Made by a program: the position numbers and the translations under genes
Shown: in pieces, positions 1-29,740 of the stretch
Numbering within the stretch: position 1 is the first letter of the stretch
Layout of the letters: each line of letters begins with the position of its first letter
DNA from: a virus
DNA: 38,329 nucleotides
Direction: 5' to 3' (one strand)
UHGV virus genome: UHGV-1488451
Notes under the pieces: generated by a model
Database searches by the model: none
What the model saw: only the letters and a program-made list of their open reading frames with translations
Told to the model about the DNA's origin: nothing

Positions 1-75
1 GGACACCCACGCGTCGCCGGACACCCACGCGTCGCCGAACACCCACGCGTCGCCGGACACCCACGCGTCGCCGGA
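1..75. repeat. 18-bp tandem repeat array (4 units plus partial), unit ggacacccacgcgtcgcc with A/G variants; encodes hexapeptide repeats on minus strand
   Basis: Direct reading: units at 1-18, 19-36, 37-54, 55-72; same array family as 38008-38277. Confidence 0.9.
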
Positions 76-645
76 CAAGTTCGATTCCTTTTCAATGAAA
101 CCGCCGAGTTCGCCTTTATCCACATATCGGCTTGGGATGTTCTCGGTGGCTTGAATACGGTACAGCGTGCGGCCAAAGACCGTGATTGTTTCGTCAGTGA
201 GGCGGTACTTTCTTTCGCTCATTATTCTTTCCTTTTTGGTGAATCTTTCGATGCATCGGTTGATGTCGTCGATGGTGATGTTTCCCCAGGGTTCGTTGAT
301 GTCCCTGTCAAGTTGCGGGGTTCGTGCGGGGAGTGTTCCTCCTAATGCGTATGGACGTTGGTTGTTTTTTGGGGTGAATTTCATCGGGTGCGGCATGTTG
401 GATGCGCTGGCATGGTTGCTGAAAGTTCCTGGGATGATTTGCAGCAGCCCGACCCCGTGTTCTACTGGGGCGTTTTGGTCTCGAATAGGCGCTATTGCGG
501 GGCCTGATTCGGCTTGGATTTCCTCGAGCACCCGTTTTATGTGGATTGCGTTTAGGATTCTTTGGCAAATGAGAGCTGTTGCTTTGATTTTGAGAAGTTG
601 TTGCATTGCTGTTAGCGGCTCAAAACTGCGGATGGTGTTAGGCAT
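1..645 (-). CDS. N-terminal portion of SLT-like (lytic transglycosylase) domain protein fused to hexapeptide repeats; 3' end runs off window start
   Basis: Manual minus-strand translation is open from 819 down to position 1; in-frame ATG at 645 (also 765, 606, 222). Contains IQAESG...EHGVGLLQIIPGTF, closely matching the SLT motif inside the tape measure protein. Not in ORF track because no stop lies within the window. Confidence 0.5.
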   Translation of the reverse strand, partial: MPNTIRSFEPLTAMQQLLKIKATALICQRILNAIHIKRVLEEIQAESGPAIAPIRDQNAPVEHGVGLLQIIPGTFSNHASASNMPHPMKFTPKNNQRPYALGGTLPARTPQLDRDINEPWGNITIDDINRCIERFTKKERIMSERKYRLTDETITVFGRTLYRIQATENIPSRYVDKGELGGFIEKESNLSGDAWVSGDAWVFGDAWVSGDAWVS

Positions 646-910
646 GCTCCGTGGATGGTGCCGATGTTGGGGTTGGGGGTGAGGGCGTTTCGAATGGGGC
701 GGGCATTTTCTTTGGTCTTTCTTTGGTAGTGGTTTTGATGGTTTGAGGCCCCCTGTGTTGTTCATCCACTGTGGGGGCTTTGTGGCGTGGCGCGGGGTTG
801 CACCGCGCTTTTGTGCTGCTCACGCCTTTGCTGTGTTCTTTCTCGTGTTCGTTCCCTCCGGTTTTTGTCCGGGTTCCTGGTGTCCTTGCCGATGCTTTGC
901 GAGAGCTTCG

Positions 911-929
911 TCACGTTATCCCAACGTGA
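911..929. promoter_or_regulatory. Perfect inverted repeat TCACGTT-N5-AACGTGA in divergent intergenic region; operator candidate
   Basis: Seen directly; lies between leftward and rightward gene sets. Confidence 0.3.
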
Positions 930-1123
930 GGTAAGTATCTTTCACGAGGCAGCTAATTAAATTTTCACACATCATAAGGTTCTTTTTATCTTCCGCTTGT
1001 GTTGCTCTTAGCGGGCGATGACTTCATTTAAGACCAGCTGATCGAATCTTGCAACAGCCACCATCAAATGCCACCCCCGACCGCTACCCCCATTTGATTA
1101 AAAAACATTAATCTACCTGCCTC

Positions 1124-1160: not shown

Positions 1161-1535
1161 ATGAGACACAAAGACTGGGTAGAAAACCTTATTGGCCCCG
1201 ACTCCATGCGCACAGCAGCAGCCAAACTTGGCCTATCCCCCGGCGCAGTGTCCCAGCAGATTAGCCGTGGAAGTTTGAAGCCAGACATGGTGATCGCGCT
1301 TTGCCGCGCTTATGGGCGGTCACCGATTGATGGGCTTGTAGAGACCGGGTTTCTTGAGCGGTTCGAGGCGGGCGCAGCTAGCCCTGCTTCGGCGCTTAGG
1401 GAGGCGACGAATCAGCAGATTCTTGGTGAGATTATGCGGCGTTCCGATGCTGATGCGGTGCGGCTATTTAGGGCTGAGGATGAGGATGTGGCGGTGTCGT
1501 CGCAGGTGAGGGCGGATGGTCCTTACAGTGATTGA
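1161..1535 (+). CDS. HTH DNA-binding protein, candidate immunity repressor/regulator
   Basis: 124 aa; HTH-like segment AAKLGLSPGAVSQQISRG; first gene of rightward arm next to palindromes. Confidence 0.5.
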   Translation: MRHKDWVENLIGPDSMRTAAAKLGLSPGAVSQQISRGSLKPDMVIALCRAYGRSPIDGLVETGFLERFEAGAASPASALREATNQQILGEIMRRSDADAVRLFRAEDEDVAVSSQVRADGPYSD

Positions 1536-3010: not shown

Positions 3011-4135
3011 ATGGCATCAATCAAACGATATGACACCGCCAAAGGAACAAAATGGCGCGTCCAATACCGCACCCCAGACGGCAAAAGCCGCACCAAAACC
3101 GGATTCCGCACCAAAAGCGAAGCCGAAAGATGGGTGGCCACACACACCACCTCCATCATCAATGGCACCTGGGTTGACCCCAACGCAGGCAACATAACCA
3201 TCCAGGCCCTCGGCACACGATGGATGGAAACCCGCACCCACCTGAAACCCTCAACAGCACGCGTCGAAGCCCTCGACTACAAAAACCACGTCCTCCCACA
3301 CTGGGGGCACCGGCGCATCAAAACTATCAAACCGTCGGAAGTGCAAGCCTGGGTGTCAGCCAGCGCCCAATCACCCTCAACCACCAGGCACCACCATGCG
3401 ATCTTGTCGAAGATTCTAGACATGGCCGTCCTCGACAACCTCATACCCGCGAACCCGGCTAAAAGCGTCACCCTGCCCCGCAAGAACAACCCAACAAAGG
3501 TGTACCTCACCATCAGCCAATTGAAGCGCCTAGCGGACGAGGCAACGGTTCGGGGTGAGCTGATCTGGCTGTTGGGAACCACTGGCCTTAGGTGGGGTGA
3601 GGCCGCTGGCTTGCAGGCGCAAGACTTGGACCCGCTGAACGGGCGCATCAGGGTGGCGAGGAACGCAGTAACGGTAGGGGGCGAGGTGGTTGTCGGAACC
3701 CCGAAAACTCATGAGCGGCGCACAGTGGCTTGCCCTGGGCATGTGATGGGGATGCTTGAAGATGCGGCACGTGGTAAGCCGCGCACCGGGTGGTTGTGGG
3801 AGTCGCCTGCGGGCGGGCCTATGCGGCTTCCGGGGAAGGGTTCTTTTTTTCATTCGGCGTTGGGGCGCGTGCGCGCCGAAGACCCGTCGTTTCCTTCGTT
3901 GACTATTCATGGTCTTAGGCATGTGGCAGCCGGACTTTTAGTTTCGGCGGGGGCGAATGTGAAGGTGGTGCAAAAGCAGCTTGGACACAAGTCTGCGGCT
4001 ATGACGTTGGATGTGTATGCGGAGTTGTTTGACGATGACTTGGATGCGGTGCGTGGGGCGTTGGATGCTTTGGTGGGTTCTTTGGGGAATGTCGTCAAAT
4101 TGTCGTCAAATCGGGGTTTTGGTGACGCGGTTTAG
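3011..4135 (+). CDS. int: Tyrosine integrase (phage integrase family)
   Basis: 374 aa; catalytic-domain motifs GLRWGEA, HGLRH, LGH...TLDVYAELF (R, H-x-x-R, H, Y); AAGGA before ATG. Confidence 0.9.
   Translation: MASIKRYDTAKGTKWRVQYRTPDGKSRTKTGFRTKSEAERWVATHTTSIINGTWVDPNAGNITIQALGTRWMETRTHLKPSTARVEALDYKNHVLPHWGHRRIKTIKPSEVQAWVSASAQSPSTTRHHHAILSKILDMAVLDNLIPANPAKSVTLPRKNNPTKVYLTISQLKRLADEATVRGELIWLLGTTGLRWGEAAGLQAQDLDPLNGRIRVARNAVTVGGEVVVGTPKTHERRTVACPGHVMGMLEDAARGKPRTGWLWESPAGGPMRLPGKGSFFHSALGRVRAEDPSFPSLTIHGLRHVAAGLLVSAGANVKVVQKQLGHKSAAMTLDVYAELFDDDLDAVRGALDALVGSLGNVVKLSSNRGFGDAV
4088..4110 (+). repeat. Direct repeat AATGTCGTCAAATTGTCGTCAAA (two TGTCGTCAAA half-units), copy 1; candidate integrase arm-type binding site
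   Basis: Exact 23-bp copy also at 4298-4320; the two copies flank the tRNA-like core. Confidence 0.45.
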
Positions 4136-5264: not shown

Positions 5265-6749
5265 TTATTTTCCCTTCATGGTTTGGATTTGCTGTTGAAT
5301 GTTGGCGATGTCGCGCCGGGCGGCGGCGACACCATCCACGAGGGTGAGGTTTTCACCCTTCGAGTTCTGGCCCAACTGCGGCCAGGGGCCAAGCTGACCG
5401 CTGATGTATTCCACTTGTTGGATTAGTCGGTCAAGCTTTTTGTTGGTTTCCTGCGCCGCGACTTTGGCGTCGTTCAGCGCGGCGACTTGCTCATGTCCGA
5501 ATAGGGACACTGGTCCTCCTTTGATTTGGATGTTTGGGTTTGCGGGTGCGGTCGAGTAGGCGTAGCCCTTCGGCAGTATCAGCGAGGCCAGCTGGTCAAG
5601 GCTGATCCAGTAGCCGTATGGGCTGAACCATGAATCCGCTATCCACACGGCACGCCCCTGGTCACCGTCTCGATATCCCATTGCGGCAATGTAGTGGTAC
5701 ACCACGCCCCCGCCATAGGCTGGGGAGACGGAGCCGTACACGCCGCGCGGGTAGTTCGACGGTGGAGCAACGATGTTGCAGATGACACCATGACCAGCTT
5801 TGACTGAGGTTTTGATGTCGTTCCACAGGCGTTCCTGCTGGTCCGCCGTTGGTGGGTCATTAGGCATCTCTACTGACTGGTATTCAGCCCCTGGGATGTG
5901 TTTGTTCAGCACCTTCGGGAAGAACCCAATCCAGTCTGTGCCGTTGACTGTGGTGCCCAGCTCCACAGCGAAATCGCCTTCCGGCTTGAGAACACCGGTG
6001 GCGGCGAACACCACAGTCTGGGTGGATGCGGGCCCGCAATTGTAGTAGGTGTCCTGTACCACGGCCTCACGGCTGTAGGGGATTTCTACTTCTTCACCAG
6101 CCTGGTTGACCAGGGTTTCACCCGCGCCGCCGCCGGTTGAACCTTCAGGAAGCAGTGACTCCCCCAAGGTCAGGCAGAAGTCGAAGCGGCGTTGCCGGTC
6201 GTCGATTCCGTTGGTTCCTCCATTGATCGCGCGGGTTGCGGCTTTGAATCCTTCGTACCGCTGCCAGCCCTCTAGGTTCGGGTCTGCTGCCTGGTCAGCA
6301 AATTCATTGAGCAGTGGCCGAGCCACCACCCAGTACCAAGCAGCAGCCATGAATCCCCACTTCGGGGTGGCCACCAAATCCGGGTCATTCACAAACAGGT
6401 TCGGGTCGCTGGTGATTCCACGATCATGGCACCATCGACCGAACGACCCGTAGTTGTTCCGTCCCGTGAGCTGTATGGGGCCGCGACCATGGAAACGTGC
6501 ACCATCACCAGGGTAGACGTTGCCGAGATCGCCACGGCCCTCATAGTTGCTGGTGAAGTAGTCATACCCGCCAAGTTCCTGCATGAATTGCAGGCCCACG
6601 GACTCATGTCCGATCTGCGCGCACCACATTGCTGCGCGCGCCACGGTCGTGATGTCCGCGAACTTCATGGCTTCATTCATGGGTTGCACAAACGCCGAAT
6701 CGACGTTGGAACCCATTGCTCGGTTAAGTGTTCCTAGGTCCATATTCAC
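5265..6749 (-). CDS. Modular endolysin: N-terminal GH19 glycosidase domain plus central cysteine-peptidase-like domain
   Basis: GH19-like motifs FHGRGPIQLTGRNNYG and KWGFMAAAWYWV; YYNCGPAS with downstream His suggests a papain-like peptidase; likely start ATG 6743 after GAAAGGAG. Confidence 0.8.
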   Translation of the reverse strand: MNMDLGTLNRAMGSNVDSAFVQPMNEAMKFADITTVARAAMWCAQIGHESVGLQFMQELGGYDYFTSNYEGRGDLGNVYPGDGARFHGRGPIQLTGRNNYGSFGRWCHDRGITSDPNLFVNDPDLVATPKWGFMAAAWYWVVARPLLNEFADQAADPNLEGWQRYEGFKAATRAINGGTNGIDDRQRRFDFCLTLGESLLPEGSTGGGAGETLVNQAGEEVEIPYSREAVVQDTYYNCGPASTQTVVFAATGVLKPEGDFAVELGTTVNGTDWIGFFPKVLNKHIPGAEYQSVEMPNDPPTADQQERLWNDIKTSVKAGHGVICNIVAPPSNYPRGVYGSVSPAYGGGVVYHYIAAMGYRDGDQGRAVWIADSWFSPYGYWISLDQLASLILPKGYAYSTAPANPNIQIKGGPVSLFGHEQVAALNDAKVAAQETNKKLDRLIQQVEYISGQLGPWPQLGQNSKGENLTLVDGVAAARRDIANIQQQIQTMKGK

Positions 6750-10570: not shown

Positions 10571-11146
10571 CTATTCCTCGCTACCCTTTTCGTCACTGTT
10601 ATTTTTTTGCAGTTCCGCCAACAACAAAGCCCGCTGCTTCGCCGTCAACTTCGACACATCAATCGGAGCCGCAGCATCCTCCACAACCTGCACGGCACCT
10701 TGCCGCTCCTCCAAAGCACCAATCCAACGCCCATCCTCATTCGGGGAACCAACACCACCCAAAGCATCAAACTTGATCTGCGGCCCAACATGCACAGTCC
10801 ACGACCAAACCCCCTCAGGCAAAGTGCCCTTCATCAACCCAGTACGCGGGTCAAGCGACAACCCCGGAGGCAACACCGGACACCACACCGCAGCCAACGA
10901 ACCACCAGGAACCAACTCATCAACCTCACGCGAATCATCCCACCCACGCGAATACTCCACCGTAGTTGGCTCCTGATCATGCAACTTCACCCCCACAAGA
11001 TCAAACAAAAACCTGCACAAATCATTAATCAGATCAATGTCCATGTTGAACCCCAGGGGCTTAATCAACAAAGGCGCATACGGGTGCATGCCCTCAGGCA
11101 CCGGATAAGGCCACATGAAATCCAACTGCTTATTACCAGTAGACAC
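10571..11146 (-). CDS. Minor tail protein (hypothetical)
   Basis: 191-aa ORF in tail module, tightly packed with neighbours. Confidence 0.45.
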   Translation of the reverse strand: MSTGNKQLDFMWPYPVPEGMHPYAPLLIKPLGFNMDIDLINDLCRFLFDLVGVKLHDQEPTTVEYSRGWDDSREVDELVPGGSLAAVWCPVLPPGLSLDPRTGLMKGTLPEGVWSWTVHVGPQIKFDALGGVGSPNEDGRWIGALEERQGAVQVVEDAAAPIDVSKLTAKQRALLLAELQKNNSDEKGSEE

Positions 11147-11158
11147 AACAAAACCCTT

Positions 11159-12757
11159 CTAAGGAATCAAAGTCTTAATACGATCAGTCGCCGCCGCCAA
11201 AGTCTTCAACGACCGCTCCAACGACCGTGCCGAAGACTCACGCAAACGCGGGTCACCCAACCCAATATCAACATCATCACCACCACGACCAGGCTTAATC
11301 GTCACCGACTGAACAAACGTCGCAAAGTTCACACCACGCGAACGAAACACCGCTTGATCACCCACACGATAATCACGCCCAAACAAATACGGGGAACCGT
11401 CACCAGCCTCAAAAGCCACCGACACTTTCCCCTGCGTCTCCTGCAAAGCGGTAAACGCTTGCTGCAGCGTCGACAAGCTGAAACCCTCACCAGGCTTCAC
11501 CAAACCCCGGTACCGGTATTTACCTAGCGCGTCCTCACGTGACCACGCCCGGAACTCCGACCAAGCGAACAGTTTGTCCTTCAAAGCGTTAGCTTGCAAC
11601 GTGCCCAGGAACGCGCCACCAGCAGCAGACAACGCGGCAAACGGGGGGAACAACGCCCCAATCGCCGCGCCGATACCCTGCCACAACGCCTGCGAACCAG
11701 CCGCAATGAGACTGTTCACAATCTGCGGGGACTTGCCCCCCACGATCACGGCACTATCAGTGGCCTTGCGTAGAACAACCTTCGACGACACGCCCCGCAT
11801 GTGGTCACCATCCCACACGCACCAGGCTTTAGGGTTGTCACCATTGAATGCGGTGTCGTCGATAACAATGGCCTTTGACACATTGTCACCAGCGATTTTC
11901 TCCTTCACGCCCCTGATGACGTCGCCAACCCCGCCGGTGGACGACGCAAAGTTCCTGGCCTTCACGTCAATCACAATGGTGGGGTTCTTTAACGTGGCAT
12001 GGTTCCTGAACGGCTGCGGGTCACCGGGTAGCCAGAGTTCAGCGACCAGTTGCAGCCCGGCCGCATCCAACGTTGCTTTGAACATGTCCCCAGCAATATT
12101 GAATCGACTGTCAAGCACAGTCCATTCGGTGTTTTCCGACTCGTGCACAGGGTTCACAATCAACGGCCACCACTCAGGCCGCAGGTCACGCCATGTTGAC
12201 GCTGACCATACATCCCAGTTCTTCAGCAACTGCGGCTGAAAATCCTTAGCCAGGTTGCGGAACAGGTAGTTTTTGATAACCCTGAGCGAATCACCAGCCT
12301 GCACATCCGACCATTTCAGCTGAGCCACAATCGGCGCGCCTGGTGATGCCCACAACGGCAAGTGATTAAACAGCTCCCACAAGCCTTCACCATGCACTGT
12401 GAACACGTCACCGTCAGAATCTGAGTTGATCTCCACCTCAACGACACGGTATGCGAAACGATAGTGCTTCGTTTCAACAACCACCCAAAGGGATTCATTC
12501 AACACACGGTTCAGGTCAGGGGTGTTGGTGTCCTCATCCGCGAACATCAACGTCCGCACCGCCGGGTGAGTGCCAGGCAAATCAATCTGCATCTTGCCCG
12601 GCGCGTTGCACTCGTCGCCAAACTGCGTGCCCTCGAGAAACCCAGACAGCGACACCAAAGGCTCCATGTTCTTATCGAACAGCCACACAGTGCGGCCACC
12701 GGAATCATGCACGCTTTTCTGCGACTTGCCCCAAAGCTCCCATGCGAAAGCCACCAA
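11159..12757 (-). CDS. Minor tail protein, tail-tip (Tal-like) candidate
   Basis: 532 aa; second gene after tape measure, the position typical of tail-tip proteins in siphoviruses. Confidence 0.55.
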   Translation of the reverse strand: MVAFAWELWGKSQKSVHDSGGRTVWLFDKNMEPLVSLSGFLEGTQFGDECNAPGKMQIDLPGTHPAVRTLMFADEDTNTPDLNRVLNESLWVVVETKHYRFAYRVVEVEINSDSDGDVFTVHGEGLWELFNHLPLWASPGAPIVAQLKWSDVQAGDSLRVIKNYLFRNLAKDFQPQLLKNWDVWSASTWRDLRPEWWPLIVNPVHESENTEWTVLDSRFNIAGDMFKATLDAAGLQLVAELWLPGDPQPFRNHATLKNPTIVIDVKARNFASSTGGVGDVIRGVKEKIAGDNVSKAIVIDDTAFNGDNPKAWCVWDGDHMRGVSSKVVLRKATDSAVIVGGKSPQIVNSLIAAGSQALWQGIGAAIGALFPPFAALSAAGGAFLGTLQANALKDKLFAWSEFRAWSREDALGKYRYRGLVKPGEGFSLSTLQQAFTALQETQGKVSVAFEAGDGSPYLFGRDYRVGDQAVFRSRGVNFATFVQSVTIKPGRGGDDVDIGLGDPRLRESSARSLERSLKTLAAATDRIKTLIP

Positions 12758-12758
12758 A

Positions 12759-13550
12759 TCACCTCCACATCGACGTGAACAATGGGGTCACCATGCCGGT
12801 AGCCCCACCACCAAAAACCCACGTGGCCCTACCACCAGGGGGGATAGGCTGCGGAAACACACGCCCCCGCAACCTACGCCACAAATCCGGGGCGGGCTCA
12901 CCACCAACCGTGATCATTGAGGCTTTAGCCGGGTCAGTGTCCAACACCGCCACCCTGTTACCAGTGTGGGGCAATTCCACCTGCCCCACACCAGGGGCGG
13001 TCACCGTTGTAACCCCGTTGCCCTGCCACCTGACGCGCGGCCACAAAGGCAAATCACCAGGGTTATGAATCACAACCTCCCCAGTGTGGCGGGTAGTTTC
13101 ACCACGCCAACACCCCTCATAGCAGACAACAGGCACATCAACCGTGAACGACCGCAAACCCAACGTGGCGGGAGAAACCCCAGGGTCAGGCACACGGTCT
13201 TTCACCAACAACCTGCACGACAATGCTGTCTTACCGGGCACAACAACCCGCAAAACAGACTCATCAAACGGAGTCACATTCCGCACAAACAACCGCCACG
13301 ACTCCGCAAGCGGAGCATCCTCAGCATGGAAACCCAGTTTCAGGGTGCCCTCCATCTTGTCGATGCTCCACCCAATCGGCGTGGCACCCACCTGTGTTGT
13401 CGTTGCCCTGGTCTTCACGTCAACCTTCGCAGACAATTCAGGTGGCCCCATCAACCACATGCCCCTACGGCCATGCGCATACCGGGTGAGTGCCCACGTC
13501 ACCCCCGCACTATCGTCAAGTGAAACGTTGTACAGGGATTCCATGAACAC
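12759..13550 (-). CDS. Minor tail protein, distal tail (Dit-like) candidate
   Basis: 263 aa; immediately downstream of tape measure. Confidence 0.55.
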   Translation of the reverse strand: MFMESLYNVSLDDSAGVTWALTRYAHGRRGMWLMGPPELSAKVDVKTRATTTQVGATPIGWSIDKMEGTLKLGFHAEDAPLAESWRLFVRNVTPFDESVLRVVVPGKTALSCRLLVKDRVPDPGVSPATLGLRSFTVDVPVVCYEGCWRGETTRHTGEVVIHNPGDLPLWPRVRWQGNGVTTVTAPGVGQVELPHTGNRVAVLDTDPAKASMITVGGEPAPDLWRRLRGRVFPQPIPPGGRATWVFGGGATGMVTPLFTSMWR

Positions 13551-13560
13551 TCACTCCTTG

Positions 13561-16500
13561 CTATGTGAGAACAGTGGGCGCGCCACCAACATGACGCTCA
13601 CCCTTGATCTTTTTCAGGTCTTTGGTGTTCACCTCGACCTTGCCCTCCACAGCCTCCACACGCTGCCGCAGGACTTCCTCACCATCCACGTTCACCACCA
13701 GGGTTAGCTGACCACCATCGCCCTTATCGGCGATTTGTTTCAGCACACCCCACTGGTCGTTAGTGAGAATCGCTTCCGGCTTGCCGGACAGGTTCACCGC
13801 CGCACCCTCATGAGGCAGCACACCGCCCTGGTCATACAGGCGTGTACCACCACGGGCACGCTGACCAGCCCAACCAGCGAGGTTCACCAACCCGTGTGCC
13901 GCGTCGATGTCCTCCATCAGGCTAGCCAAACCACCAAACCCATCATCACCACCATTAAAAGCGGCACCGAGTTCACCCCACGCGGCACCAGCATCAGCGG
14001 CCTTGTTGACAAGGAACTTGGCGCGCTCCTCACCAACAACACCAGCTGTTGCGCCGTACCCGTAGTCGCCACCGTTGAAGGCGGTCGTGAACTCCTCGGC
14101 CACGTTCGCGGCCAGGCTGTTGCGCACCATGCGGCCGAAATTACCGGTGGCGTTCACCAGTGTTTTCGCGTGCGTGTCGCCGATCAGCTGGCCGAGCCCG
14201 CCGAAGCCGTCATCACCGCCGTGGAACGCTGTTGTGAGTTCTTCACGTGCAGCATCCACGGGGTTGATCTGCGGCCCTGTTGGGTTAATGTCCTGCGGGT
14301 TTTCCGGTTTTGCGTCGGCAACTGCGGCTGCGGCACCATCAACCCCGGAAGCAGCGGTGTTAGAATCGCCTGCCTGTTTGGCCTGCTCTTCTTCCTTCTT
14401 CTTCTGGTCGCGGGTGAACCAATCCGGTACAGGCGCAAGCTTGTCCGGTGGGGTTGTGGCCAGCTTCTTGATCAGGCCGTTTCCGCCGCCGATGAACTCG
14501 AAGAACGCGTCTTGTGCAAGTGCGTCCGGGGACTTGTTGCCAAGGGTTTTCCAGAACACTTCGTTGGCGATGCCAGCGCCGTAGGCCCCGGCGTCTTGCC
14601 AGCGTTTTACTTCGTTCTGGGCGTTGACGATTCCTTGGTGTGCGGCTAGTGCCGCGACTACTGCGGGGTGGTCTTCTTCGAGGTGGGTTGCGTCTGCGCC
14701 GAGGTATTCGCCGGTGTTGATGACGTGCATGAGTGCGTCTGCGGCTTGTTTCCAGGCTGCGGGGCCTTTGTTGCCGAGTTCGACGAGGGCTGGGATTGCG
14801 TTTCGGAGGTCTCCGAAGTTGCGTTCCAGCATGTCCCACTGTTCAGCGGTTAGGACAGCCTCTGGCTTTCCTGTGTGGTTCCAGTAGGTGCCGAACCCTC
14901 CTGGGGTGGGTTTGAGCCAGCCGCCGGAATCGTAGCCATGTCCATGACCCCACATTGTGGTCAAATCAGTGCCGTACCTGCTCTTGTAGTAGCGGAGCGC
15001 GGCGTTCATATTGGCCCACGGGTCACGCCTATCGTTCGGCAATTCGGGGTCACGGTTGGCTGCGAATGTGCCGGGGATGATCTGCAGCAAGCCAACGCCC
15101 GCACTGTCGCCAGTTCCGTTGACGTCGACAATCTGCTGTGCAATACCCGGGTTGCCACCAGACTCAGACTGAATCTGGGCCAGCATGGCGTTGACCTGCG
15201 CCGGGTCATCAGCATTAAAGCCTTGACGACGCATCGCGGCCATTGCCATTTCGCGCCACGACTCGGCATTACCAGCCACACCAGCGGCACCGGAGAAGGT
15301 GCCCACCTTCGACTTGATAAAGTCCCAAGCCTTGTCAGCGAGGGTTTTAGCGATAGCTCCGGGGAGCTTGCCGAAGTCGCCGTGCTGCTCCTTGCCTGGG
15401 AAGTCGCCGATCTTATTGATCGCCGCGTCCCACAGGCCCTTGACCATTGCTCCGAGGTTGAAGCCGCCACCGCCACCAGCGCCACCTGAAATGAACTCCC
15501 CAAGGAACTCCTTCAAAGTGTAGGTGTGGTTGAACAGGCTGTTATCGGAGCCACGTGCCGCACCGCCGATCTGCACGCCGTGATCGCCCGCCGATTCCAA
15601 GTTAACCCCGTCGATAGTGCCCGCCATGTGGCCGTTCTCGCCGCCGCCTTTGCCGGACAGCACGCCAATGGTCACGCGGCCAGACAAGCCGGGGACGAAC
15701 CCGAAGTTACCAAAGTTACTTTCGGTGTTGAAGATACGTCCTGCGCGCAGCGAACCGCCGTTCAGGAACTGCGTAATGCCTGACCACAGGCCCGAGCAAT
15801 CCCAGCTGGGGTTGCCGGTGCCCCCATACTGATAGGGCTTGCCGTGCTCAGATTTGAGTTCATTGAACAAGGCCGCAATGCGCTCAGTCAGGTGATCGCG
15901 CTGATCAGTGCCGCCATTAGGGAACACGCCGCCCTTAGCGAACGCAAGGGCACGGTACACGCCGCCGCGCGCGAACGCGGCACCCTCACCCAGCATCTTC
16001 TTGACGCGGCTCACGCCACCACCAATGGCGGCTTTGTTCAGCGCATCAACAGCAGGCTTACCGCCCATAGCCTTAGTGACCTCTGGGCGCATGATCGCCT
16101 CACCGCCGGACAAGCCAAGCAGCCCGCCAGTGGGGCTGTAGAAATGGTGAATATCCTTACCAGGACTGTAACCAGGCAGGACACCACCGGTTGCGAAATG
16201 ATGCTCTGGGAGTTCACCAAGGCCAACCAGCTTGGCCACCGTGTTCCAGGCTTTCCTGATGCCACCGTTGTAGACCGTGTTGACCACGAACTCAACAGGT
16301 TTTTTCGTCTTGTCCTTGATGCCGTCCCAGATGCGGCCGATATTATCGACGGTCTGACTGAACCAGTCTTTGACTTTCGTCAACCCGTCTTTCAGCCCGT
16401 TGAACACCGGGTGCACCACATTATCAGCAACCCAGCGTATGCCGTTGCCGAGGGCTTCCCACGTTGGTTTGATGTAGCCGTTCCAGATGCTGGAGAAGAA

Positions 16501-19500
16501 GTCCCCCAACGCCTGCAAACCGGCCTGCATCAGGTTCCACGTTGGTGTAACAACCGTGTCGAACACCCACTTGATGCCAGCGCCAAGACCGTTCCACACA
16601 GCCTTGATGAACTCGACCATCGGGTTAAACACATTGTTGGCCAGCCATGTGATTCCCGCGATCATTAAATCCCAGGTGGGTTTGATGATCGTGTCCCACG
16701 CGAATCGAATGGCAAGGCTCAGGCCGTCCCACTCGAATTTGATGAAACCGAAAATCGGCATGAGGACGTTGTTCCACATGAAGTTTGCCGCGCCTTGCAG
16801 CAAATCCCACGCGGGTTTAATCACGTTGTCCCAACCAGCTTTGATGCCCCATGACAGGGCTTCCCAGGCCAGCAGCAGCGGTGTCAGCACGATCGTTCCG
16901 ATCAGCGCCAGGCCAAACTTCGCCGCGTACTCCAACGCGTCCCACGCCGGTTTGATCAGCGTGTTCCACGCCCAGGCGATGCCAGCGGAAATAGCATTCC
17001 ACGTGTCACCCAGGAACTGGATACCAACACGCACAGCATCAGCCAAGTAGTTGCCCACCCATTGGATGACCACACCAACCACACTGATTAGCGGGTTGAA
17101 ACCATTGGTGATAATCCACGACAAAATGTTCGTGGCCTGCGACAAAATCCACGCTAATCCCTCAACGGCTTTCACCGCCCCAAGGATTGCGCCCACCACC
17201 ACGCCACCAACAATGATACCGATGGTTTGCAGCACCGGCATCAGCACCGGTTCAAGCAGGTTCCACAGCTGCACAAGCAGATTCCACAAGCCTTGCAGCG
17301 CACCCCACACAGCACCCGTGATCGTCTGGCCAAGACTATTCAAAGTCGTGGCCAAGGTCGTGACAGTGTTCCACAGGCTCGTGAAAGTGCCACTCAGCGA
17401 ATCCACAATTATGCCGCGAATCCACTCCATTGCATTACCGACGGTGGTGAAAGCATCAGCAATCATCTGCGCTTTGTCCGCGCCGAAAAGGGCGGTCAGC
17501 CCGCCGATGCCAGCATCATCGCCCTGGAACGCGGCGAACAGCTCACCAATGGATGCCTTCACATTCTGGAACGCAACGCCCATGCGCTCAGCAAAATCAA
17601 CAATCGCCTGGGCTTTATCAGCCCCGAAGATCGCCATGAGGCCACCAAACCCGGCGTCGCCGCCGTTGAAAGCCTCAGTGATTTCACCCCACGCGGCTTT
17701 CAGGTTGCTGAACAGAGTGAACACCGGCTGTAGGGCTTGCCCCATGAAGCTGGTGAACTCGCCCCAAATCCGCTTGCCCGTCTCGGTCTTCGTGAAGAAC
17801 AAGACCAGGGCACCAACAACGGCGGCTATGCCAGCGACAATCAAGCCTATGGGGTTGATCAGCATGGCTGTGTTCAAGCCCATTTGTGCGGCCGTGGCCT
17901 GCAAAGTGCCCGCGCGCTGCGCCGCAAGCAGGGCAGGCAAAACTTTCATCTGCGCTGCAAACGAACTAATCGCAGACACCGCAAACAAACCAGCCTGCGC
18001 CGCCCGCAAAGCAGCCATGCCAGCAACAACACCACCAACAGCGCCGCCAATAACAACCAGCAAATCCTTATTGCGGCCCAGCCACTCAGCCACAGCAGGA
18101 AGCTGATTAGTCAACGCGCCAATGGAGTTCCCCAGACGATCACCCCACGCCGAAAGCGTAGGCTCAGCCAAGGCGTACAGCTGCAGCTGCAAATCATCAA
18201 TCGCGTTTCCGATACGGTCCATCACACCATTCAGGCCAGCGAGCTTAGCCCCCGCAGTTTCACCAGCGGAGCCTTGCCGGTCGAGAGAAGCACGCAGCTT
18301 ATCAAACCCCTCGACACCACTGTTCGCCGCAGTAGTCGCAAACGATACAGCCTCACGCCCAAACGCGGTTGCAGCAGCGGCGGTAAACGCACTCTCACCC
18401 ATGCGGTCCTGCGCGGCCGCCAGCTGCGCGGTGATTTCCCGCATACCCACGAACTTGCCTTGCGCATCGAACGCATTGACACCCATCTCAGCAAGCGCCT
18501 TAGCGCCTTCTTTTGACGGGTTAGTAAGCGACAGCAACGCCGAACGCATCGCCGTACCAGCCTCGGAACCCTTGATGCCAAGGTTGGCGAACAAGCCAAG
18601 ATACGTACTCGCATCCTGCAAAGACACACCCAGAGTGGAGGCAATAGGTGCCGTGTACTTGATGGAGTCGCCTAGCTCAGTCAAGCCTGTAGCACTGTTA
18701 TTAGCGGTGTTAGTCAACACGTCAGCAACAAGTGACGCATCCTTAGCCGCCAGGTGGAAACCATTCAACGCCGCGATCTGAATATCAGCAGCAGTGCCAG
18801 CATCAACCTGAGCAGCACCCGCAAGCTGAATGGAACCCTTTGCCGCGTCCATAGCATCAGACACCGACAAACCACCCTTAGCCAACGCCAGCATCGCATC
18901 AGTAGCAGATGCGGCACTAGTGCCAGCCAGGGTTTCATCGTTGCCAAGGTCGCGGGCACGCTGCGACACCATCTTCATAGTGTCCCCAGTCGAACCCGTC
19001 ACAGCCTGCAACGACCCCATCACCTGCGACAGCTCACGGCCTTTACCAATGGCATCACCAAAAAACGCGGCACCACCAGCAACACCAAGACCACCAGCAA
19101 TAACCCCACCAAGACGACCAACCGTCCCCACAAGGGAACTAATCTTCCCGCCCACACTATCCACATCACCAGAAAGGCTCAGCGCCCAAGCCTTCGACTT
19201 CTCAGCCGCGCCAGTGAACGTGAAACCAGTCTTCTTAACCTGGTCCCCAACATGCCCAGCAGCCTCAGCAGCCTTACGCTGCGACGCTGCGGCGTCCTCC
19301 ATTGTGGCCTTGTACAGTTTCTCCTTGGCGCTCACCTGGTCGTTGGCGTTCGCTAAATCAACCTTAGCTTTCTTAAGCTCCCCCTCCGACTTCACCAAAG
19401 CAAGTGACGCACGGTCAGACTGGCGTTTAGCAGTCTCTAGCTCACGCTCCGCGCGCTGAACCTCCTTCGAGTCAGCGTCATTAGCGTTACGCGCGTCCTG

Positions 19501-20076
19501 AAGTTTCTTCTCCGCAGCCGCGACTTTCTCATTAGCTGCGGCGACTTTATCCCGCTGCTCCCCCACAGCAAGATCAGCGGCCTTTACCTTCCCCGATGCC
19601 TCAGCTGCGGCAATACGAGCCTTCCCAAGGTTATCCTCAGTACGTGCCACCTGAGCCGCGGTTGCGACGCCGCCCTCACGAATAGCCTTAAGGTCAGTCT
19701 CACCACGTGCGACCTGGGCGGTAGCCTGATCAAGCTTGGCTTTGGCCACTGCCGCATCAGACTCCGCGCGCGCCACCTGCGACGCCGTGGCCGTGCTGCT
19801 GTTACGCGCCTGCTGCAGTCGCTCCTCAGCCACCGCAACATCCTGCGCCGCCTGCGCCTCAGCCTTACGGGCCGCAGCAACCACGCGGGTTTGCTTCTCG
19901 ACGCCCTCAGCCAGCGCGGCACCGGCGTTCTGGCCGGACTTCTCAAAGCTCTTCTCGATCAGGGCGCCAGCATCATCAGCAGCCTTCGACGCGCCCTTCA
20001 CCACCTCAGCGGCGAAACCACGCATCGAAGCATTAACCGGAACCCACACAGTAGACGCCACCGCGCCACACTCCAA
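13561..20076 (-). CDS. Tail tape measure protein with embedded NlpC/P60-like peptidase and SLT-like lytic transglycosylase domains
   Basis: 2171 aa; N-terminal coiled coil, Gly/Ala TM-like stretches, W-rich periodic repeats, motif WDCSGLW (about 15784-15804) and QSESGG...GVGLLQIIPGTF (about 15071-15099). Confidence 0.9.
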   Translation of the reverse strand: MECGAVASTVWVPVNASMRGFAAEVVKGASKAADDAGALIEKSFEKSGQNAGAALAEGVEKQTRVVAAARKAEAQAAQDVAVAEERLQQARNSSTATASQVARAESDAAVAKAKLDQATAQVARGETDLKAIREGGVATAAQVARTEDNLGKARIAAAEASGKVKAADLAVGEQRDKVAAANEKVAAAEKKLQDARNANDADSKEVQRAERELETAKRQSDRASLALVKSEGELKKAKVDLANANDQVSAKEKLYKATMEDAAASQRKAAEAAGHVGDQVKKTGFTFTGAAEKSKAWALSLSGDVDSVGGKISSLVGTVGRLGGVIAGGLGVAGGAAFFGDAIGKGRELSQVMGSLQAVTGSTGDTMKMVSQRARDLGNDETLAGTSAASATDAMLALAKGGLSVSDAMDAAKGSIQLAGAAQVDAGTAADIQIAALNGFHLAAKDASLVADVLTNTANNSATGLTELGDSIKYTAPIASTLGVSLQDASTYLGLFANLGIKGSEAGTAMRSALLSLTNPSKEGAKALAEMGVNAFDAQGKFVGMREITAQLAAAQDRMGESAFTAAAATAFGREAVSFATTAANSGVEGFDKLRASLDRQGSAGETAGAKLAGLNGVMDRIGNAIDDLQLQLYALAEPTLSAWGDRLGNSIGALTNQLPAVAEWLGRNKDLLVVIGGAVGGVVAGMAALRAAQAGLFAVSAISSFAAQMKVLPALLAAQRAGTLQATAAQMGLNTAMLINPIGLIVAGIAAVVGALVLFFTKTETGKRIWGEFTSFMGQALQPVFTLFSNLKAAWGEITEAFNGGDAGFGGLMAIFGADKAQAIVDFAERMGVAFQNVKASIGELFAAFQGDDAGIGGLTALFGADKAQMIADAFTTVGNAMEWIRGIIVDSLSGTFTSLWNTVTTLATTLNSLGQTITGAVWGALQGLWNLLVQLWNLLEPVLMPVLQTIGIIVGGVVVGAILGAVKAVEGLAWILSQATNILSWIITNGFNPLISVVGVVIQWVGNYLADAVRVGIQFLGDTWNAISAGIAWAWNTLIKPAWDALEYAAKFGLALIGTIVLTPLLLAWEALSWGIKAGWDNVIKPAWDLLQGAANFMWNNVLMPIFGFIKFEWDGLSLAIRFAWDTIIKPTWDLMIAGITWLANNVFNPMVEFIKAVWNGLGAGIKWVFDTVVTPTWNLMQAGLQALGDFFSSIWNGYIKPTWEALGNGIRWVADNVVHPVFNGLKDGLTKVKDWFSQTVDNIGRIWDGIKDKTKKPVEFVVNTVYNGGIRKAWNTVAKLVGLGELPEHHFATGGVLPGYSPGKDIHHFYSPTGGLLGLSGGEAIMRPEVTKAMGGKPAVDALNKAAIGGGVSRVKKMLGEGAAFARGGVYRALAFAKGGVFPNGGTDQRDHLTERIAALFNELKSEHGKPYQYGGTGNPSWDCSGLWSGITQFLNGGSLRAGRIFNTESNFGNFGFVPGLSGRVTIGVLSGKGGGENGHMAGTIDGVNLESAGDHGVQIGGAARGSDNSLFNHTYTLKEFLGEFISGGAGGGGGFNLGAMVKGLWDAAINKIGDFPGKEQHGDFGKLPGAIAKTLADKAWDFIKSKVGTFSGAAGVAGNAESWREMAMAAMRRQGFNADDPAQVNAMLAQIQSESGGNPGIAQQIVDVNGTGDSAGVGLLQIIPGTFAANRDPELPNDRRDPWANMNAALRYYKSRYGTDLTTMWGHGHGYDSGGWLKPTPGGFGTYWNHTGKPEAVLTAEQWDMLERNFGDLRNAIPALVELGNKGPAAWKQAADALMHVINTGEYLGADATHLEEDHPAVVAALAAHQGIVNAQNEVKRWQDAGAYGAGIANEVFWKTLGNKSPDALAQDAFFEFIGGGNGLIKKLATTPPDKLAPVPDWFTRDQKKKEEEQAKQAGDSNTAASGVDGAAAAVADAKPENPQDINPTGPQINPVDAAREELTTAFHGGDDGFGGLGQLIGDTHAKTLVNATGNFGRMVRNSLAANVAEEFTTAFNGGDYGYGATAGVVGEERAKFLVNKAADAGAAWGELGAAFNGGDDGFGGLASLMEDIDAAHGLVNLAGWAGQRARGGTRLYDQGGVLPHEGAAVNLSGKPEAILTNDQWGVLKQIADKGDGGQLTLVVNVDGEEVLRQRVEAVEGKVEVNTKDLKKIKGERHVGGAPTVLT

Positions 20077-20867
20077 TCAGATTTCAAGACTCTTCAAATA
20101 CGCAAGTGCCTCCTCCTGGGTGTGATCACCCAGGGAACCAATGCGTGAAGAATTAGCGTTCTTAATCTCCGACCACGGATAGGCAGGTGTTTCTTCGGCC
20201 GGCATTTTTGCTTTGCTGTTTCCGTTCACGCGGGCCAGCAAAACCTGTGTTTCCCACGTCGCCCACAACAGCCGCCACAACAGGGAGTCGGTAATGCCGT
20301 AGGGCTTGCCGTCGGTTTGATGCCAACGCGCCGGGGAATCCTTAGGCAGGTTCTCAACAAGGACGCGGAGTTTCCGCAAGGTGATCTCACCCCGCCAGAA
20401 CTCCGCCATAACATCCCTGTGGTACGCCTGCTCTAGTGACGCTTCGAGGACTTCCGCGCCACCGCACGACGCTGCAAGCGATTCAACGGTGAAGATTTTC
20501 CCTCACTGTTGACAGCCTCCATAGCTTTGCGATGCTCAGCGAACACCAAGCCCCACAGAGACGACGAGCCACCAGCCTCGAGGAACCGGTCGTACTCTTC
20601 CTCACCCATGAACCAGGCACACAAATCAGGCCCGTACTCTGGCAGGTCATTCAGCTCATCCAACTGGGCATCATTCAGGAACATCGGGTCAGCGAAAGTA
20701 AAGGTTTCACCCTTGAATGTGAAGGCGATACGGTCACCCTCAATGCCGGTGGCTTCCTTCCGCTGAGCGATCAAAGTATCCAAATCATAGGACATGGCAG
20801 ACCCCTTCCAAAGTCTCACAAGCAGGCCAAACAACAAAAGGTTGGTGGGGGCGGGCCTGCCAAACAC
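20077..20867 (-). CDS. Tail assembly chaperone GT-type fusion product made by programmed -1 frameshift at 20496-20502
   Basis: Zero frame ends ...NSEGKSSPLNRLQRRAVARKSSKRH at 20433; the -1 frame opens right after a TGA exactly at heptamer G_GGA_AAA and runs to the tape measure start. Confidence 0.6.
20433..20867 (-). CDS. Tail assembly chaperone (G-like, zero-frame product)
   Basis: 144-aa acidic protein immediately upstream of tape measure. Confidence 0.7.
   Translation of the reverse strand: MFGRPAPTNLLLFGLLVRLWKGSAMSYDLDTLIAQRKEATGIEGDRIAFTFKGETFTFADPMFLNDAQLDELNDLPEYGPDLCAWFMGEEEYDRFLEAGGSSSLWGLVFAEHRKAMEAVNSEGKSSPLNRLQRRAVARKSSKRH
20496..20502 (-). promoter_or_regulatory. Slippery heptamer GGGAAAA (X_XXY_YYZ) for -1 ribosomal frameshifting
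   Basis: Plus strand reads ttttccc; on minus strand the zero-frame codons are gaG GGA AAA. Confidence 0.6.
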
Positions 20868-20888
20868 TCCCCCACCACCACCTAAAAT

Positions 20889-20915
20889 GCTGGCCTTTGA
20901 TAACCCGGGGCCAGC
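20889..20915 (-). terminator. Stem-loop (GCTGGCC / GGCCAGC) followed by a T-run on minus strand, downstream of major tail gene
   Basis: 7-bp perfect stem, 13-nt loop, then ATTTTA on minus strand. Confidence 0.4.
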
Positions 20916-20947
20916 AAGAAACCGGGGATTCGAACAACAATCAGACG

Positions 20948-21895
20948 CTAAGCATCAGCAATGACAAGCTGCAGTTTCTGCGTCGCAGTGCGCTTTTTAC
21001 CATCCTCCACCTTGAAGGTGATCTCAGTGGTACTAGCAGCCGTCGGGCTGCCCGTGATCTTGCCGTCCTTGTTCAGACTCAGGCCAGCGGGCAGGGCGGG
21101 CGTGCCGTCAACAGACCAGTTGTAGGGGGCCTCACCACCAAGTGCAGCAAGGGTGACGGAATACTCCTGGCCCTTCGTGCCAGCAGGCAGCTGCTGGGTC
21201 TGCACCTTAAGCGGCACAGCACCATCATCAGATGAAGACGTGGCGCCCTTAGCGCCGGAACCATCCCAGCCAGCGGAGAACAGCCACCGCGCGGTCTTGC
21301 CGGACAGCTGCTGATCTGCGTATTCCTTGCCAGCGGGGAAACCAGTCAGGGTGATTTCCAGGCCGATAGCGTCTTCACGCTTGAACGTCATGCCGGAGCG
21401 GCCGGTAACCTGAGCATCAAGCAGGGTGATGCGCATGGCCTTGTCGCCGTCAACGACGTCGAGCACGCACTGTTGGTGCTCAAACTCAGGCAGGTTGCCT
21501 TCATCGAAGTACCAGGAACCGTCGTCGTTGACCTTGATCTGACCACCGGGGACACCAAAGTACAGGCTCGCGTTGTCACGCGTGAACTGCCACAGAGTGA
21601 CCTTGATTGCCTTCACAGACTTCGTGATGTCACGACGAATAGGCAGGGCCTCCTGCCACGGAATGAACTCGTTAGTGTCCTCGTCGAAACTGATTTCCAC
21701 ACCATCCGGGCTGATGTAACCACGGTTCAGGTAGATGCTGGTGTCGTACTTTTCCTTGAAATCGGTCATGACTTTGGTGCCGATTGCTGCGGTTCGCAGC
21801 GCACCGGTGACACCGACGCGCAGGGCGGCGGCTTCGAATCCTTCGAGGGTTGCCTGTTCGGCCATTTGTTTTCCTCCTGTTGCGGAATGCCCCAC
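20948..21895 (-). CDS. Major tail protein with C-terminal Ig-like domain
   Basis: C-terminal LPAGTKGQEYSVTLAALGGEAPYNWSVDGTPALPAGLSLNKDGKITG resembles putative bacterial Ig-like domains; likely start ATG 21865 after GGAGG. Confidence 0.75.
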   Translation of the reverse strand: MGHSATGGKQMAEQATLEGFEAAALRVGVTGALRTAAIGTKVMTDFKEKYDTSIYLNRGYISPDGVEISFDEDTNEFIPWQEALPIRRDITKSVKAIKVTLWQFTRDNASLYFGVPGGQIKVNDDGSWYFDEGNLPEFEHQQCVLDVVDGDKAMRITLLDAQVTGRSGMTFKREDAIGLEITLTGFPAGKEYADQQLSGKTARWLFSAGWDGSGAKGATSSSDDGAVPLKVQTQQLPAGTKGQEYSVTLAALGGEAPYNWSVDGTPALPAGLSLNKDGKITGSPTAASTTEITFKVEDGKKRTATQKLQLVIADA

Positions 21896-21932
21896 CCGGG
21901 TTTCGGATGGGGCGTAGATTTGCTTACTTTCT

Positions 21933-22337
21933 CTATGTGGGCACGTGAAGTGTCACTGTGACACCAAGGCGGCGTATGTGCGGGTTGTAGTCAGGCCGCG
22001 TCGAGAACCCGGGGCAATCAACATAAGTCACATTCGCCCCTGCATAGTTCGGGAGATTATGCATCAACTGCCTAATCAAAACCCCAGTGGGATGAGCCAA
22101 CGCCCGCGACGCCGCGAACACGTCAATGTCCAACACGACGAAATCCCGAACGGGCCCACGCCCACCCCACGCGACAACCTCCTCACCTGGGAGCAGGTCA
22201 ACCATCACATACGGCAACTGCTGGTCAAGCTCCCCAGGCGGGGGCATACGGTCAGCCACAGTCACATCAGGCAAGGTGGAGGAAAGCATCTCAATCACCA
22301 TGCGCAAAGTATCTGACCAGGCGCGATCATTCATCAA
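21933..22337 (-). CDS. Head-tail joining protein (tail terminator candidate)
   Basis: 134-aa ORF between connector genes and major tail gene. Confidence 0.45.
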   Translation of the reverse strand: MMNDRAWSDTLRMVIEMLSSTLPDVTVADRMPPPGELDQQLPYVMVDLLPGEEVVAWGGRGPVRDFVVLDIDVFAASRALAHPTGVLIRQLMHNLPNYAGANVTYVDCPGFSTRPDYNPHIRRLGVTVTLHVPT

Positions 22338-22338
22338 C

Positions 22339-22629
22339 TTACTTCACCTCCCTTGCCGCACGCCGTAAGGCGCGTATGCGCTTCTTCTCCGACGTGCCGT
22401 ACTCTTCATCGCTTTCGGAAACCACGTCGTATGAGGCACGGCCGTTCGCGTGGTATCGACGCCGAACATCAATGACGGCTTCACCGCCTTCACGCAGGGT
22501 TATTTGCCTAGCGCGCGCCGCGATCTTCGCTGCCTGCTGCTCAGTGCCACCCACAACCTGATCTGTATCCATGACCTGCTTGAACAGGTCATCTAGGTCA
22601 AGCTCAACCCGGGTTGATTCCCTACCCAT
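22339..22629 (-). CDS. Head-tail joining protein (hypothetical)
   Basis: 96-aa ORF in neck-gene block. Confidence 0.4.
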   Translation of the reverse strand: MGRESTRVELDLDDLFKQVMDTDQVVGGTEQQAAKIAARARQITLREGGEAVIDVRRRYHANGRASYDVVSESDEEYGTSEKKRIRALRRAAREVK

Positions 22630-22978
22630 GAATCACCTTCAACCTGGCCTCCACATGATGCACCCGGCCAGTAAACGGGTCAGGCCATTTCATCGGAGTG
22701 CCGTCGACATCCAACACCAGTGAGCCACCAACCCGCACACGGTCACCCGCCCGCAGGTCAATATCAAACCCAATCTGGGTGTACAGCATGAACACCGTTG
22801 TCAGAGTGCCAGCACGGCCAGAATCCTCCGACGTGGAAACCGGCTGCACACTCACCAAATGCGGATACGCGATAACCTCCGGGTCGTCAAACGACGCGGT
22901 TCCACGCTTCGGGTTATAAGGGTCTCGCACCAACTTGGGGCGCAGAACCTCCACCGACTGATTGAAAATCAAGCTCAT
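22622..22978 (-). CDS. Head-tail joining / head closure protein candidate
   Basis: 118-aa ORF, overlapping stop/start with neighbours. Confidence 0.45.
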   Translation of the reverse strand: MSLIFNQSVEVLRPKLVRDPYNPKRGTASFDDPEVIAYPHLVSVQPVSTSEDSGRAGTLTTVFMLYTQIGFDIDLRAGDRVRVGGSLVLDVDGTPMKWPDPFTGRVHHVEARLKVIHG

Positions 22979-23478: not shown

Positions 23479-23489
23479 CCCACACCTCC

Positions 23490-23723: not shown

Positions 23724-23725
23724 GA

Positions 23726-27310: not shown

Positions 27311-27323
27311 CAGAAATCACCTC

Positions 27324-29232: not shown

Positions 29233-29364
29233 GATTAAAGCTCCTTCCAGAAACCAGGTCTTGCGCGCGCGATACCCCCAAAAACGAGTGGGGGGAGAGG
29301 ACAGGCCCACCCGGCTCAAATGTCCTGGTCAGGTGTGCTGGTGATTTGCTACCCCCTACCGTTG

Positions 29365-29649: not shown

Positions 29650-29676
29650 GGGGTTTTGGGGGTTGATATGGGTAAA

Positions 29677-29700: not shown

Positions 29701-29740
29701 TTGTCTGCGACTGAGTTTAGCAGTGTGGTTGCCCGTTTTG

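Follow-up and report, generated by a model that had tools for sequence, protein, structure and literature searches.

Peptidoglycan-hydrolase motifs in phage tape measure proteins were described by Piuri and Hatfull in 2006 (PMC1796659); the same paper noted transglycosylase motifs in the tape measures of Gordonia phages and recorded host proteins, small and free-standing, with a relation to tape measure motifs. Tape-measure-related pieces outside phage tails are also represented by the Sle1-type effectors of actinobacterial contractile injection systems (PMC13277306). Here we analyze a locus at the left end of virus genome UHGV-1488451 (the whole stretch analyzed, 38,329 nucleotides (nt), is referred to as the window). 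At this locus an SLT-like open reading frame (ORF) on the minus strand runs in frame into a gene for a beta-solenoid protein of the YdcK family. The two probably constitute a two-cistron accessory module that heads the minus-strand early operon, with a tape-measure-derived first cistron that would be read through facultatively into the YdcK-type gene. The structure of the ORFs, their homology, their polymorphism among related phages and the signs of purifying selection are all directly observed.

With the SLT modules of actinophage tape measures the ORF shares the Glu-Ser (E-S) motif, the GLLQ(I/V)IPGTF motif and the pattern R-x-P-x-L-x-x-D-x-x-x-P-W-x-N, and as a free-standing copy it is paralleled by the stand-alone host proteins of PMC1796659. 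Unlike the tape measure modules, it is an ORF of 128 codons heading an early operon, it stays below the Pfam SLT threshold, and no association with the virion is expected. It lies about 13 kb from the tape measure gene of the same genome (13561-20076) and not inside the tail module. The Sle1-type effectors offer a precedent in Actinobacteria for the reuse of tape-measure-related pieces as independent proteins. They are cargo of tail-like particles with a tape-measure-like modular architecture, whereas here only an SLT-like module of about 100 residues is reused, in a phage early operon. As for the second part, members of the YdcK family (PF18836; PHROG 5070/7964; often annotated as 'polymer-forming cytoskeletal protein') have in common with our protein an N-terminal cap K-Y-x-L-T...TLYRI, a G[D/N]A[W/R/Q]V[S/Y/F] hexapeptide array and a C-terminal GC(W/F)xGTL domain. 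Their size of 210-290 aa agrees with that of our protein if the latter starts at the Met codon at position 222. Unlike other members of the family, however, the protein of this strain can gain a 128-residue N-terminal extension by read-through. A search of the literature on YdcK in phages found nothing relevant.

An initial reading of the locus from the sequence alone (the sequence-only reading) likened it to cell-puncturing tail lysozymes such as T4 gp5. The common ground is superficial order alone, a muralytic-type motif followed by repetitive beta structure. T4 gp5 is a trimeric intertwined helix, whereas the solenoid considered here is of the single-chain YdcK/bactofilin type; moreover, the gene is found in the early operon beside the repressor and not in a baseplate module. 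Pfam and PHROG profiles revealed no OB fold, GH24 lysozyme or gp5_C match in the fusion, and the repeats gave only weak, composition-type matches to baseplate wedge PHROGs (E >= 3e-4). In Mycobacterium phage Boilgate the homologue of the YdcK-type protein is a hypothetical protein encoded among replication genes. The lack of gp5-related domains, the single-chain solenoid and the location of the Boilgate homologue leave the analogy with a gp5-like device unsupported.

Translation of the minus strand shows that the frame ending at base 1 is free of stop codons from a TGA at 822-820 up to the window edge; it is missing from the program-made ORF list because it runs off the window end. Its product includes ...EIQAESGPAIAPIRDQNAPVEHGVGLLQIIPGTF... 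and GDAWVS/GDAWVF repeats from about position 77 to position 1. Two claims of the sequence-only reading, an unannotated edge-running frame from about 819 to 1 and an SLT-like peptide continuing in frame into G[D/N]A[W/R]V[S/F] repeats, hold in this genome. T accounts for 12.5% of the minus strand, and the estimated chance of 199 stop-free codons is about 0.002; a chance origin of the open frame is unlikely. Bases 1-124 are repeated at the other end of the window (38206-38329, no strand assigned) with 97.6% identity, i.e. 3 mismatches, inside an 18-bp tandem array, as revealed by self-BLAST and the mismatch list. From the overlap of its ends, the window can be recognized as a circular assembly (about 38.2 kb) that was cut inside this array. 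Assembling the protein across the two ends, as the sequence-only reading had proposed, shows that past the circular closure the gene goes on in the same frame at 38205 and reaches its stop at 37699-37701. Independent sister contigs of 38.0-38.2 kb span the closure point contiguously and confirm the gene.

For comparison we aligned 11 distinct relatives, namely the window itself (contig L002 represents the same phage), L001, L003-L008 and L058-L060; counts of relatives given below refer to this set. The core of the SLT-like ORF consists of 128 codons (223-606, minus strand; MQQLLKIK...RFTKKERI) and is delineated by translation, codon-position pattern, the ratio of nonsynonymous to synonymous substitution rates (dN/dS) and homology. 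The resident homologue is an SLT-like module (15007-15198, minus strand) within the 2171-aa tape measure protein. This protein matches PF01464 (E = 3.6e-6, 27 bits against a cut-off of 21.3) and also PF10145. BLASTP aligned the ORF with tape measure residues 1627-1690 (15198-15007) at E = 4e-8 (41 bits, 33 identities, about 35%), and profile-profile comparison with hhalign returned a probability of 97% and E = 7e-11, so the homology proposed in the sequence-only reading is well founded. A catalytic-type Glu-Ser pair and a downstream G-L-(L/M)-Q motif are both present and aligned to tape measure SLT segments. The pair itself, Glu33-Ser34 (505-510, minus strand), is part of the invariant EIQAESG and aligns to the E-S motif of the Pfam SLT region of the tape measure. 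The GVGLLQIIPGTF motif (421-456, minus strand) is identical at the protein level to the tape measure residues encoded at 15064-15099. The DNA likeness to the resident tape measure gene amounts to a single 36-nt stretch over this motif (28 of 36 positions), and the eight mismatches all fall on third codon positions. Whether a tape measure copy had been hypermutated was considered as well; 36 nt of alignment are too few to show a directional pattern. The ORF also has features unlike those of the tape measure modules, namely a 28-residue insertion after GTF and its C-terminal helix.

The source of the SLT-like module was sought more broadly. In a tblastn search of 50,697 phage records all 63 matches of the ORF, in cultured phages, were located inside annotated tape measure genes, those of Gordonia, Nocardia, Rhodococcus and Corynebacterium phages, with 30-33% identity over residues ~19-109. 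Tape measures of Gordonia and Rhodococcus phages score 42-45 bits (30-33% identity) against the ORF, compared with 41 bits for the phage's own tape measure. Since the phage's own tape measure does not resemble the ORF more than these others do, the duplication of the resident gene suggested by the sequence-only reading is not supported. A word-indexed protein search with the ORF retrieved five proteins, all from sister contigs, and when 1.84 billion representatives were searched exhaustively with a profile, only two repeat-protein artefacts (P0125 and P0126) came in addition from beyond the clade. Judging by these searches, the ORF is confined to this phage clade, its other homologues being the SLT modules of actinophage tape measures. 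In genome contigs the ORF had no match and TerL matched only relatives with 30-39% identity from a range of Actinobacteria, so these scans did not reveal a host prophage.

The second part of the open frame is the 5' part of a YdcK-family beta-solenoid gene (1-222, minus strand), which begins with an ATG at 222-220 (MSERKYRLTDETITVFGRTLYRIQA...) and runs off the window edge. The remainder (37699-38205, minus strand; in-frame continuation, seen also in L002 and L007) encodes the hexapeptide array and the C-terminal domain (..IGCWEGTL..) up to the stop at 37699-37701. PF18836 (B_solenoid_ydck) scores 62.1 bits on the repeat part against a cut-off of 30, while phrog_7964 (9e-64) and phrog_5070 (2.5e-52) cover residues 3-146 of the protein. 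Position 2 of the phrog_5070 profile aligns to residue 3 of MSERKY, and the protein started from Met 222 matches the phage YdcK family profiles (PHROG 5070/7964) over their full length. When the whole fusion (383 aa) was used as a query, 2660 proteins were found at E <= 0.001, nearly all of 210-290 aa and covering only the C-terminal ~60%. Among the matches listed, 119 of the 120 homologues cover the YdcK part alone, and the sole protein covering both parts, P0001, comes from the same clade. The 10 homologues that we inspected have the same K(Y/F)xLT..TLYRI cap at the start and the GC(W/F)xGTL domain at the end. The ATG at 222 is preceded by a strong Shine-Dalgarno sequence (AAGGAAAG, 234-227), kept in the relatives (as GGAAAT in L008). 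Based on the starts of homologues, the N-terminus of the family corresponds to the internal Met at 222. The gene is well constrained (dN/dS ~0.1), and variable columns at its N-terminus are distributed as 4/2/16 over the three codon positions. The E. coli YdcK equivalog (NF040481 of NCBIfam) yields 47 bits against a cut-off of 350; with a score so far below the cut-off, the protein is not an orthologue of E. coli YdcK.

The hexapeptides G[D/N]A[W/R/E]V[S/F] are encoded by the 18-bp tandem array, in which Tandem Repeats Finder delimits 14.8 copies at 38017-38282 and 4.3 copies in the left-end part at 1-77 (both minus strand). The number of units is 5, 9, 10 or 15 among otherwise closely related phages (L001-L008). 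L002 differs from the window by 1 mismatch in 2.4 kb and yet has 10 units, whereas the circularised window has about 15. Since the assembly broke inside the array, the count for this genome is uncertain. The A-rich DNA and the exchanges of D for N and of W for R between the two end copies prompted us to consider a diversity-generating retroelement. This was rejected: such exchanges are the normal variation between units of the tandem array, which the assembly has cut, and among the genes called in two 20-kb loci of L002 and L003, which cover only parts of these genomes, none has a reverse-transcriptase domain on record.

The connection between the two parts turned out to be variable. The junction (227-243, minus strand; TTCACCAAAAAGGAAAG) contains the Shine-Dalgarno sequence of the YdcK-type gene together with an A-run that hosts frame-changing indels. 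At TTCACCAAAAAGGAAAGAATAATG, eight of the 11 relatives are in frame and stop-free, whereas three are split by three different indels. One A fewer in L003 makes the TGA of the ORF overlap the YdcK ATG (ATGA), and one C fewer in L005 does the same with a TAA (TAATG), both overlaps being of the classical coupled-gene type; two bases fewer in L004 place a TAA stop 13 codons into the YdcK-type gene. Thus, three independent frame changes have occurred within 15 nt at the junction and none in the 380 nt upstream. Both reading frames are preserved while their linkage is not, and splitting by independent indels of 1-2 nt implies that the covalent link is dispensable. Gene callers differ in the same manner: the call in L002 starts at MSERKY, and that in L001 is the fused 310-aa P0001. 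A stop or frameshift between the SLT part and the repeats, which the sequence-only reading had named as evidence against a single gene, is absent from this genome and present in three of the relatives. A fixed fused gene is therefore not supported, given this splitting and the fact that the repeat part, which has its own Shine-Dalgarno sequence, belongs to a widespread stand-alone family. As far as can be judged from the aligned sequences, the fusion represents a tolerated polymorphism of a two-gene module.

Several features suggest that the upstream part is itself a gene. The ATG at 606-604 is present in all 11 relatives. The sequence-only reading had taken 645 as the upper coordinate; the frame is indeed open there, but the ATG at 645 does not hold as a start, being ATA/ATT in L001 and L003 and deleted in L005, and the ATG at 765 is not conserved either. 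Variable columns of 606-223 are distributed over codon positions as 30/19/47 (chi-square p = 0.002), and indels within the body are of 24, 3 and 3 nt only. EIQAESG is invariant, and HGVGL(L/P)QIIPGTFS nearly so. The SLT-like frame is open in 10 of the 11 relatives and the antisense frame is not; an ORF on the plus strand (167-682), which shares third codon positions with it, was rejected as a real gene, being broken in at least five relatives. Pairwise dN/dS of 606-223 is 0.27-0.41, compared with 0.01 for the repressor-like gene. Most likely, then, 606-223 is a real gene under relaxed constraint.

According to the explanation that we favor, the first cistron (606-223) would be a clade-restricted gene of 128 codons exapted from the SLT-type muralytic module of actinophage tape measures, having kept the Glu-Ser and GLLQ-IPGTF motifs and gained the 28-residue insertion. 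The second cistron (222-1, then 38205-37699) would be an ordinary YdcK-family beta-solenoid gene with its own Shine-Dalgarno sequence and start. In genomes with the in-frame state (the window and seven of the 10 other relatives), ribosomes from ATG 606 would make a read-through fusion of about 370 aa, predicted to span the junction as ...RFTKKERIMSERKYR..., and those starting at ATG 222 would make the solenoid alone, a product of 242 aa. In the other three relatives, indels in the A-rich spacer bring back a stop, either overlapping the YdcK start or 13 codons inside the gene. The first cistron would accordingly be translated, and its product presumably still binds or cuts the glycan strands of peptidoglycan. 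Neither part has a transmembrane segment or a signal peptide (the maximal Kyte-Doolittle mean over 19 residues is 0.98), so access to the wall would need lysis, a holin or another partner. That the in-frame state is functional, with a tape-measure-derived peptidoglycan-binding or -cutting head tethered to a solenoid whose 5-15 turns vary between near-identical phages, and with the protein, produced from the leading gene position next to the immunity region, acting on the envelope, is a doubtful extension of this scheme.

A number of observations speak against our interpretation, and most of them would fit a different one, in which the SLT-like stretch is a decaying tape measure fragment within a long 5' leader, its frame persisting by descent and owing to the T-poor strand, and only the YdcK-type gene is expressed. 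Inspection of the sequence revealed no convincing Shine-Dalgarno sequence before ATG 606, and the upstream ATGs at 645 and 765 vary as described. Constraint is relaxed, with dN/dS of 0.3-0.4 being three to four times the value of neighbouring genes. The composition resembles that of the clearly non-coding leader at 819-607, and stops are rare at 12.5% T. L003 has Leu replaced by Pro inside the core motif (GVGLPQ), where HGVGLLQIIPGTFS is otherwise conserved, GVGLLQIIPGTF being kept in 10 of the 11 relatives, and in L006, covered 1x, the frame contains a TGA. In L002, nearly identical to the window, the ORF was missed by the gene caller. A 141-aa query of the ORF matches no Pfam family at E <= 1, PF01464 included, and a PDB sequence-profile search gave chance-level matches only (E >= 0.2). 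AlphaFold2 returned a low mean pLDDT (56.9 with a 6-row and 54.9 with a 17-row alignment), only the two terminal helices being confident. NCBIfam and PADLOC gave no match for the ORF either, and PHROGs only a weak tape measure match (E = 0.008). Nevertheless, we regard a mere relic as unlikely. Decay does not account for the excess of variable sites at third positions, or for internal indels that are all multiples of three while frame-shifting ones occur only at the junction. The motifs, which need G/T-rich codons (Gly, Val, Leu, Phe, Trp), have been kept against a strong A/C drift. The stop of L006 is absent from its sister contig L059. As for the missing call, gene callers also fail to recover the RusA and HNH genes, which are evident and share this composition; in general, genes in blocks of these phages with an extreme A/C content are overlooked or placed on the wrong strand, and such ORFs are consequently missing from annotations in a systematic way.

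One further point at odds with a two-gene module is that the in-frame state is the majority state, and hence compatible with a functional fusion. Found stop-free in eight of the 11 relatives, it is probably ancestral, and the fused P0001 is what a gene caller produced. Taken to its limit, this would mean an obligate fusion enzyme in which a lysozyme-like head and a beta-helix act as one protein, be it a cell-puncturing lysozyme or a wall-anchored muralytic effector. We find this very unlikely, given three independent natural splits that leave both parts intact and the YdcK Shine-Dalgarno sequence and ATG retained in every relative. The absence of any gp5, OB-fold, GH24 or gp5_C match and of an export signal, the placement in an early operon rather than in the tail module, and a solenoid from a non-structural, stand-alone family (with the Boilgate homologue among replication genes) argue in the same direction, and no other SLT+YdcK architecture occurs among the homologues listed. 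Alternatively, translation of 606-223 could mainly serve to control the YdcK-type gene through coupling or read-through, with 1-nt A-run polymorphisms tuning the coupling. The ATGA and TAATG overlaps of the split variants, the polymorphic A-runs at both ends of the ORF (~812 and 237-233) and the highly conserved, moderately structured leader all agree with such a role. However, a purely regulatory ORF would not require conserved tape-measure catalytic-type motifs, the A-runs of 4-5 nt are too short for efficient slippage, and the YdcK-type gene has a strong Shine-Dalgarno sequence of its own, which makes this possibility highly improbable. The two-cistron module thus remains our preferred explanation.

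The genomic context agrees with the sequence-only reading, which placed the gene beside the immunity switch. A divergent 124-aa helix-turn-helix (HTH), repressor-like gene (1161-1535, plus strand; phrog_16278 at 8.5e-22 and weaker repressor PHROGs; dN/dS as given above) heads the plus-strand lysogeny block, which ends with an integrase identified by profile matches (3011-4135, plus strand). The module is the first minus-strand coding sequence after this HTH gene. Downstream of it are genes for a small HTH protein, an HTH_17 protein, YqaJ, RecT, SSB and RusA, followed by the terminase. No terminator-like site was found on the minus strand between 1300 and 1, so a single transcription unit is plausible. 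PADLOC models of defence-system proteins matched neither of the two parts nor the two genes that follow. By TerL, Corynebacterium phages come closest among cultured phages (54% identity); the phage, a temperate siphovirus of about 38.2 kb, probably has Corynebacterium or a close relative as its host.

Upstream of ATG 606 the frame continues as a basic, Pro/His-rich stretch (607-819, minus strand) that lacks codon periodicity. Its dN/dS is ~1 against L005, and its frame is broken by indels (29+1 nt in L001, 1 nt in L005); it is probably a leader rather than conserved coding sequence. An A-run at ~812 (GCAGCACAAAAG) varies in length by 1 nt, which shifts the frame ahead of the ORF. The relatives whose run is shorter (L001, L005, L006 and L007) have read-in from a GTG/ATG at ~823, e.g. 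MNSKKRGATPRH... in L006, and in the window there is an in-frame TGA instead. Between the repressor-like gene and the ORF lies a nearly invariant, non-coding region of about 300 nt (741-1040, minus strand) with 2-10% variable columns, compared with 13-47% in the flanks; synonymous sites of the flanking genes differ by 14-66%. Its minus-strand RNA folds better than 100 of 100 shuffled sequences (z = -2.65), and a search of 1-1300 against Rfam gave no match. This region may represent a promoter/operator cluster or a structured leader. A terminator-like hairpin at 789-809 on the plus strand (GGCGCGGGGTTGCACCGCGC followed by TTTTGTG), antisense to the SLT-like frame and upstream of the repressor-like gene, might terminate an antisense RNA or serve as an insulator of the repressor gene.

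The A/C-rich composition is not limited to the SLT-like ORF. Third-position A+C reaches 86-95% in the RusA/HNH block (29380-31230, minus strand; G 4-6%, T 1-8%) and 80% in the region of the ORF (223-830), compared with only 12-30% in the late genes (10571-29319), all on the same strand. In the A/C-rich block the amino-acid composition is shifted as well, towards Thr, Pro, His, Gln and Asn. The mosaic recurs in L003, where the gene caller mis-strands genes, and in a milder form in the right arm of Gordonia phage Reyja. Cumulative GC skew turns at ~29 kb and ~1 kb. Close to the composition switch, between SSB and RusA, an ORF without a Pfam match (31239-32426, minus strand; 395 aa) contains four copies of a 22-nt unit (ATTCGGATTCATTTCGCGTTCG, 74% matches) at 31923-32010; these look like replication-origin iterons within a putative initiator gene. 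The endolysin module has been swapped among these phages: window (5265-6749) and L002 have Glyco_hydro_19 and Peptidase_C39_2, whereas L003 (4114-5505) and L004 (695-2086) have Peptidase_M23 and Glyco_hydro_25. An Rv3766_C C-terminal domain is on record for the endolysins of L002, L003 and L004; the scan of the window (E <= 0.01) did not list it.

If the first cistron is expressed, the locus would show in a clear natural example how a muralytic module of the virion, copied out of a tape measure, came to serve as an accessory gene of the early or lysogenic phase. Were the fusion functional, it might exclude superinfecting phages that use the same tape measure module, or remodel the wall, and an arms race would then account for both the split/fused polymorphism and the hypervariable array. 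Fused and split versions within one population make it possible to test directly whether the covalent link is important, and the module offers a first functional handle on the uncharacterised YdcK-type proteins of phages.

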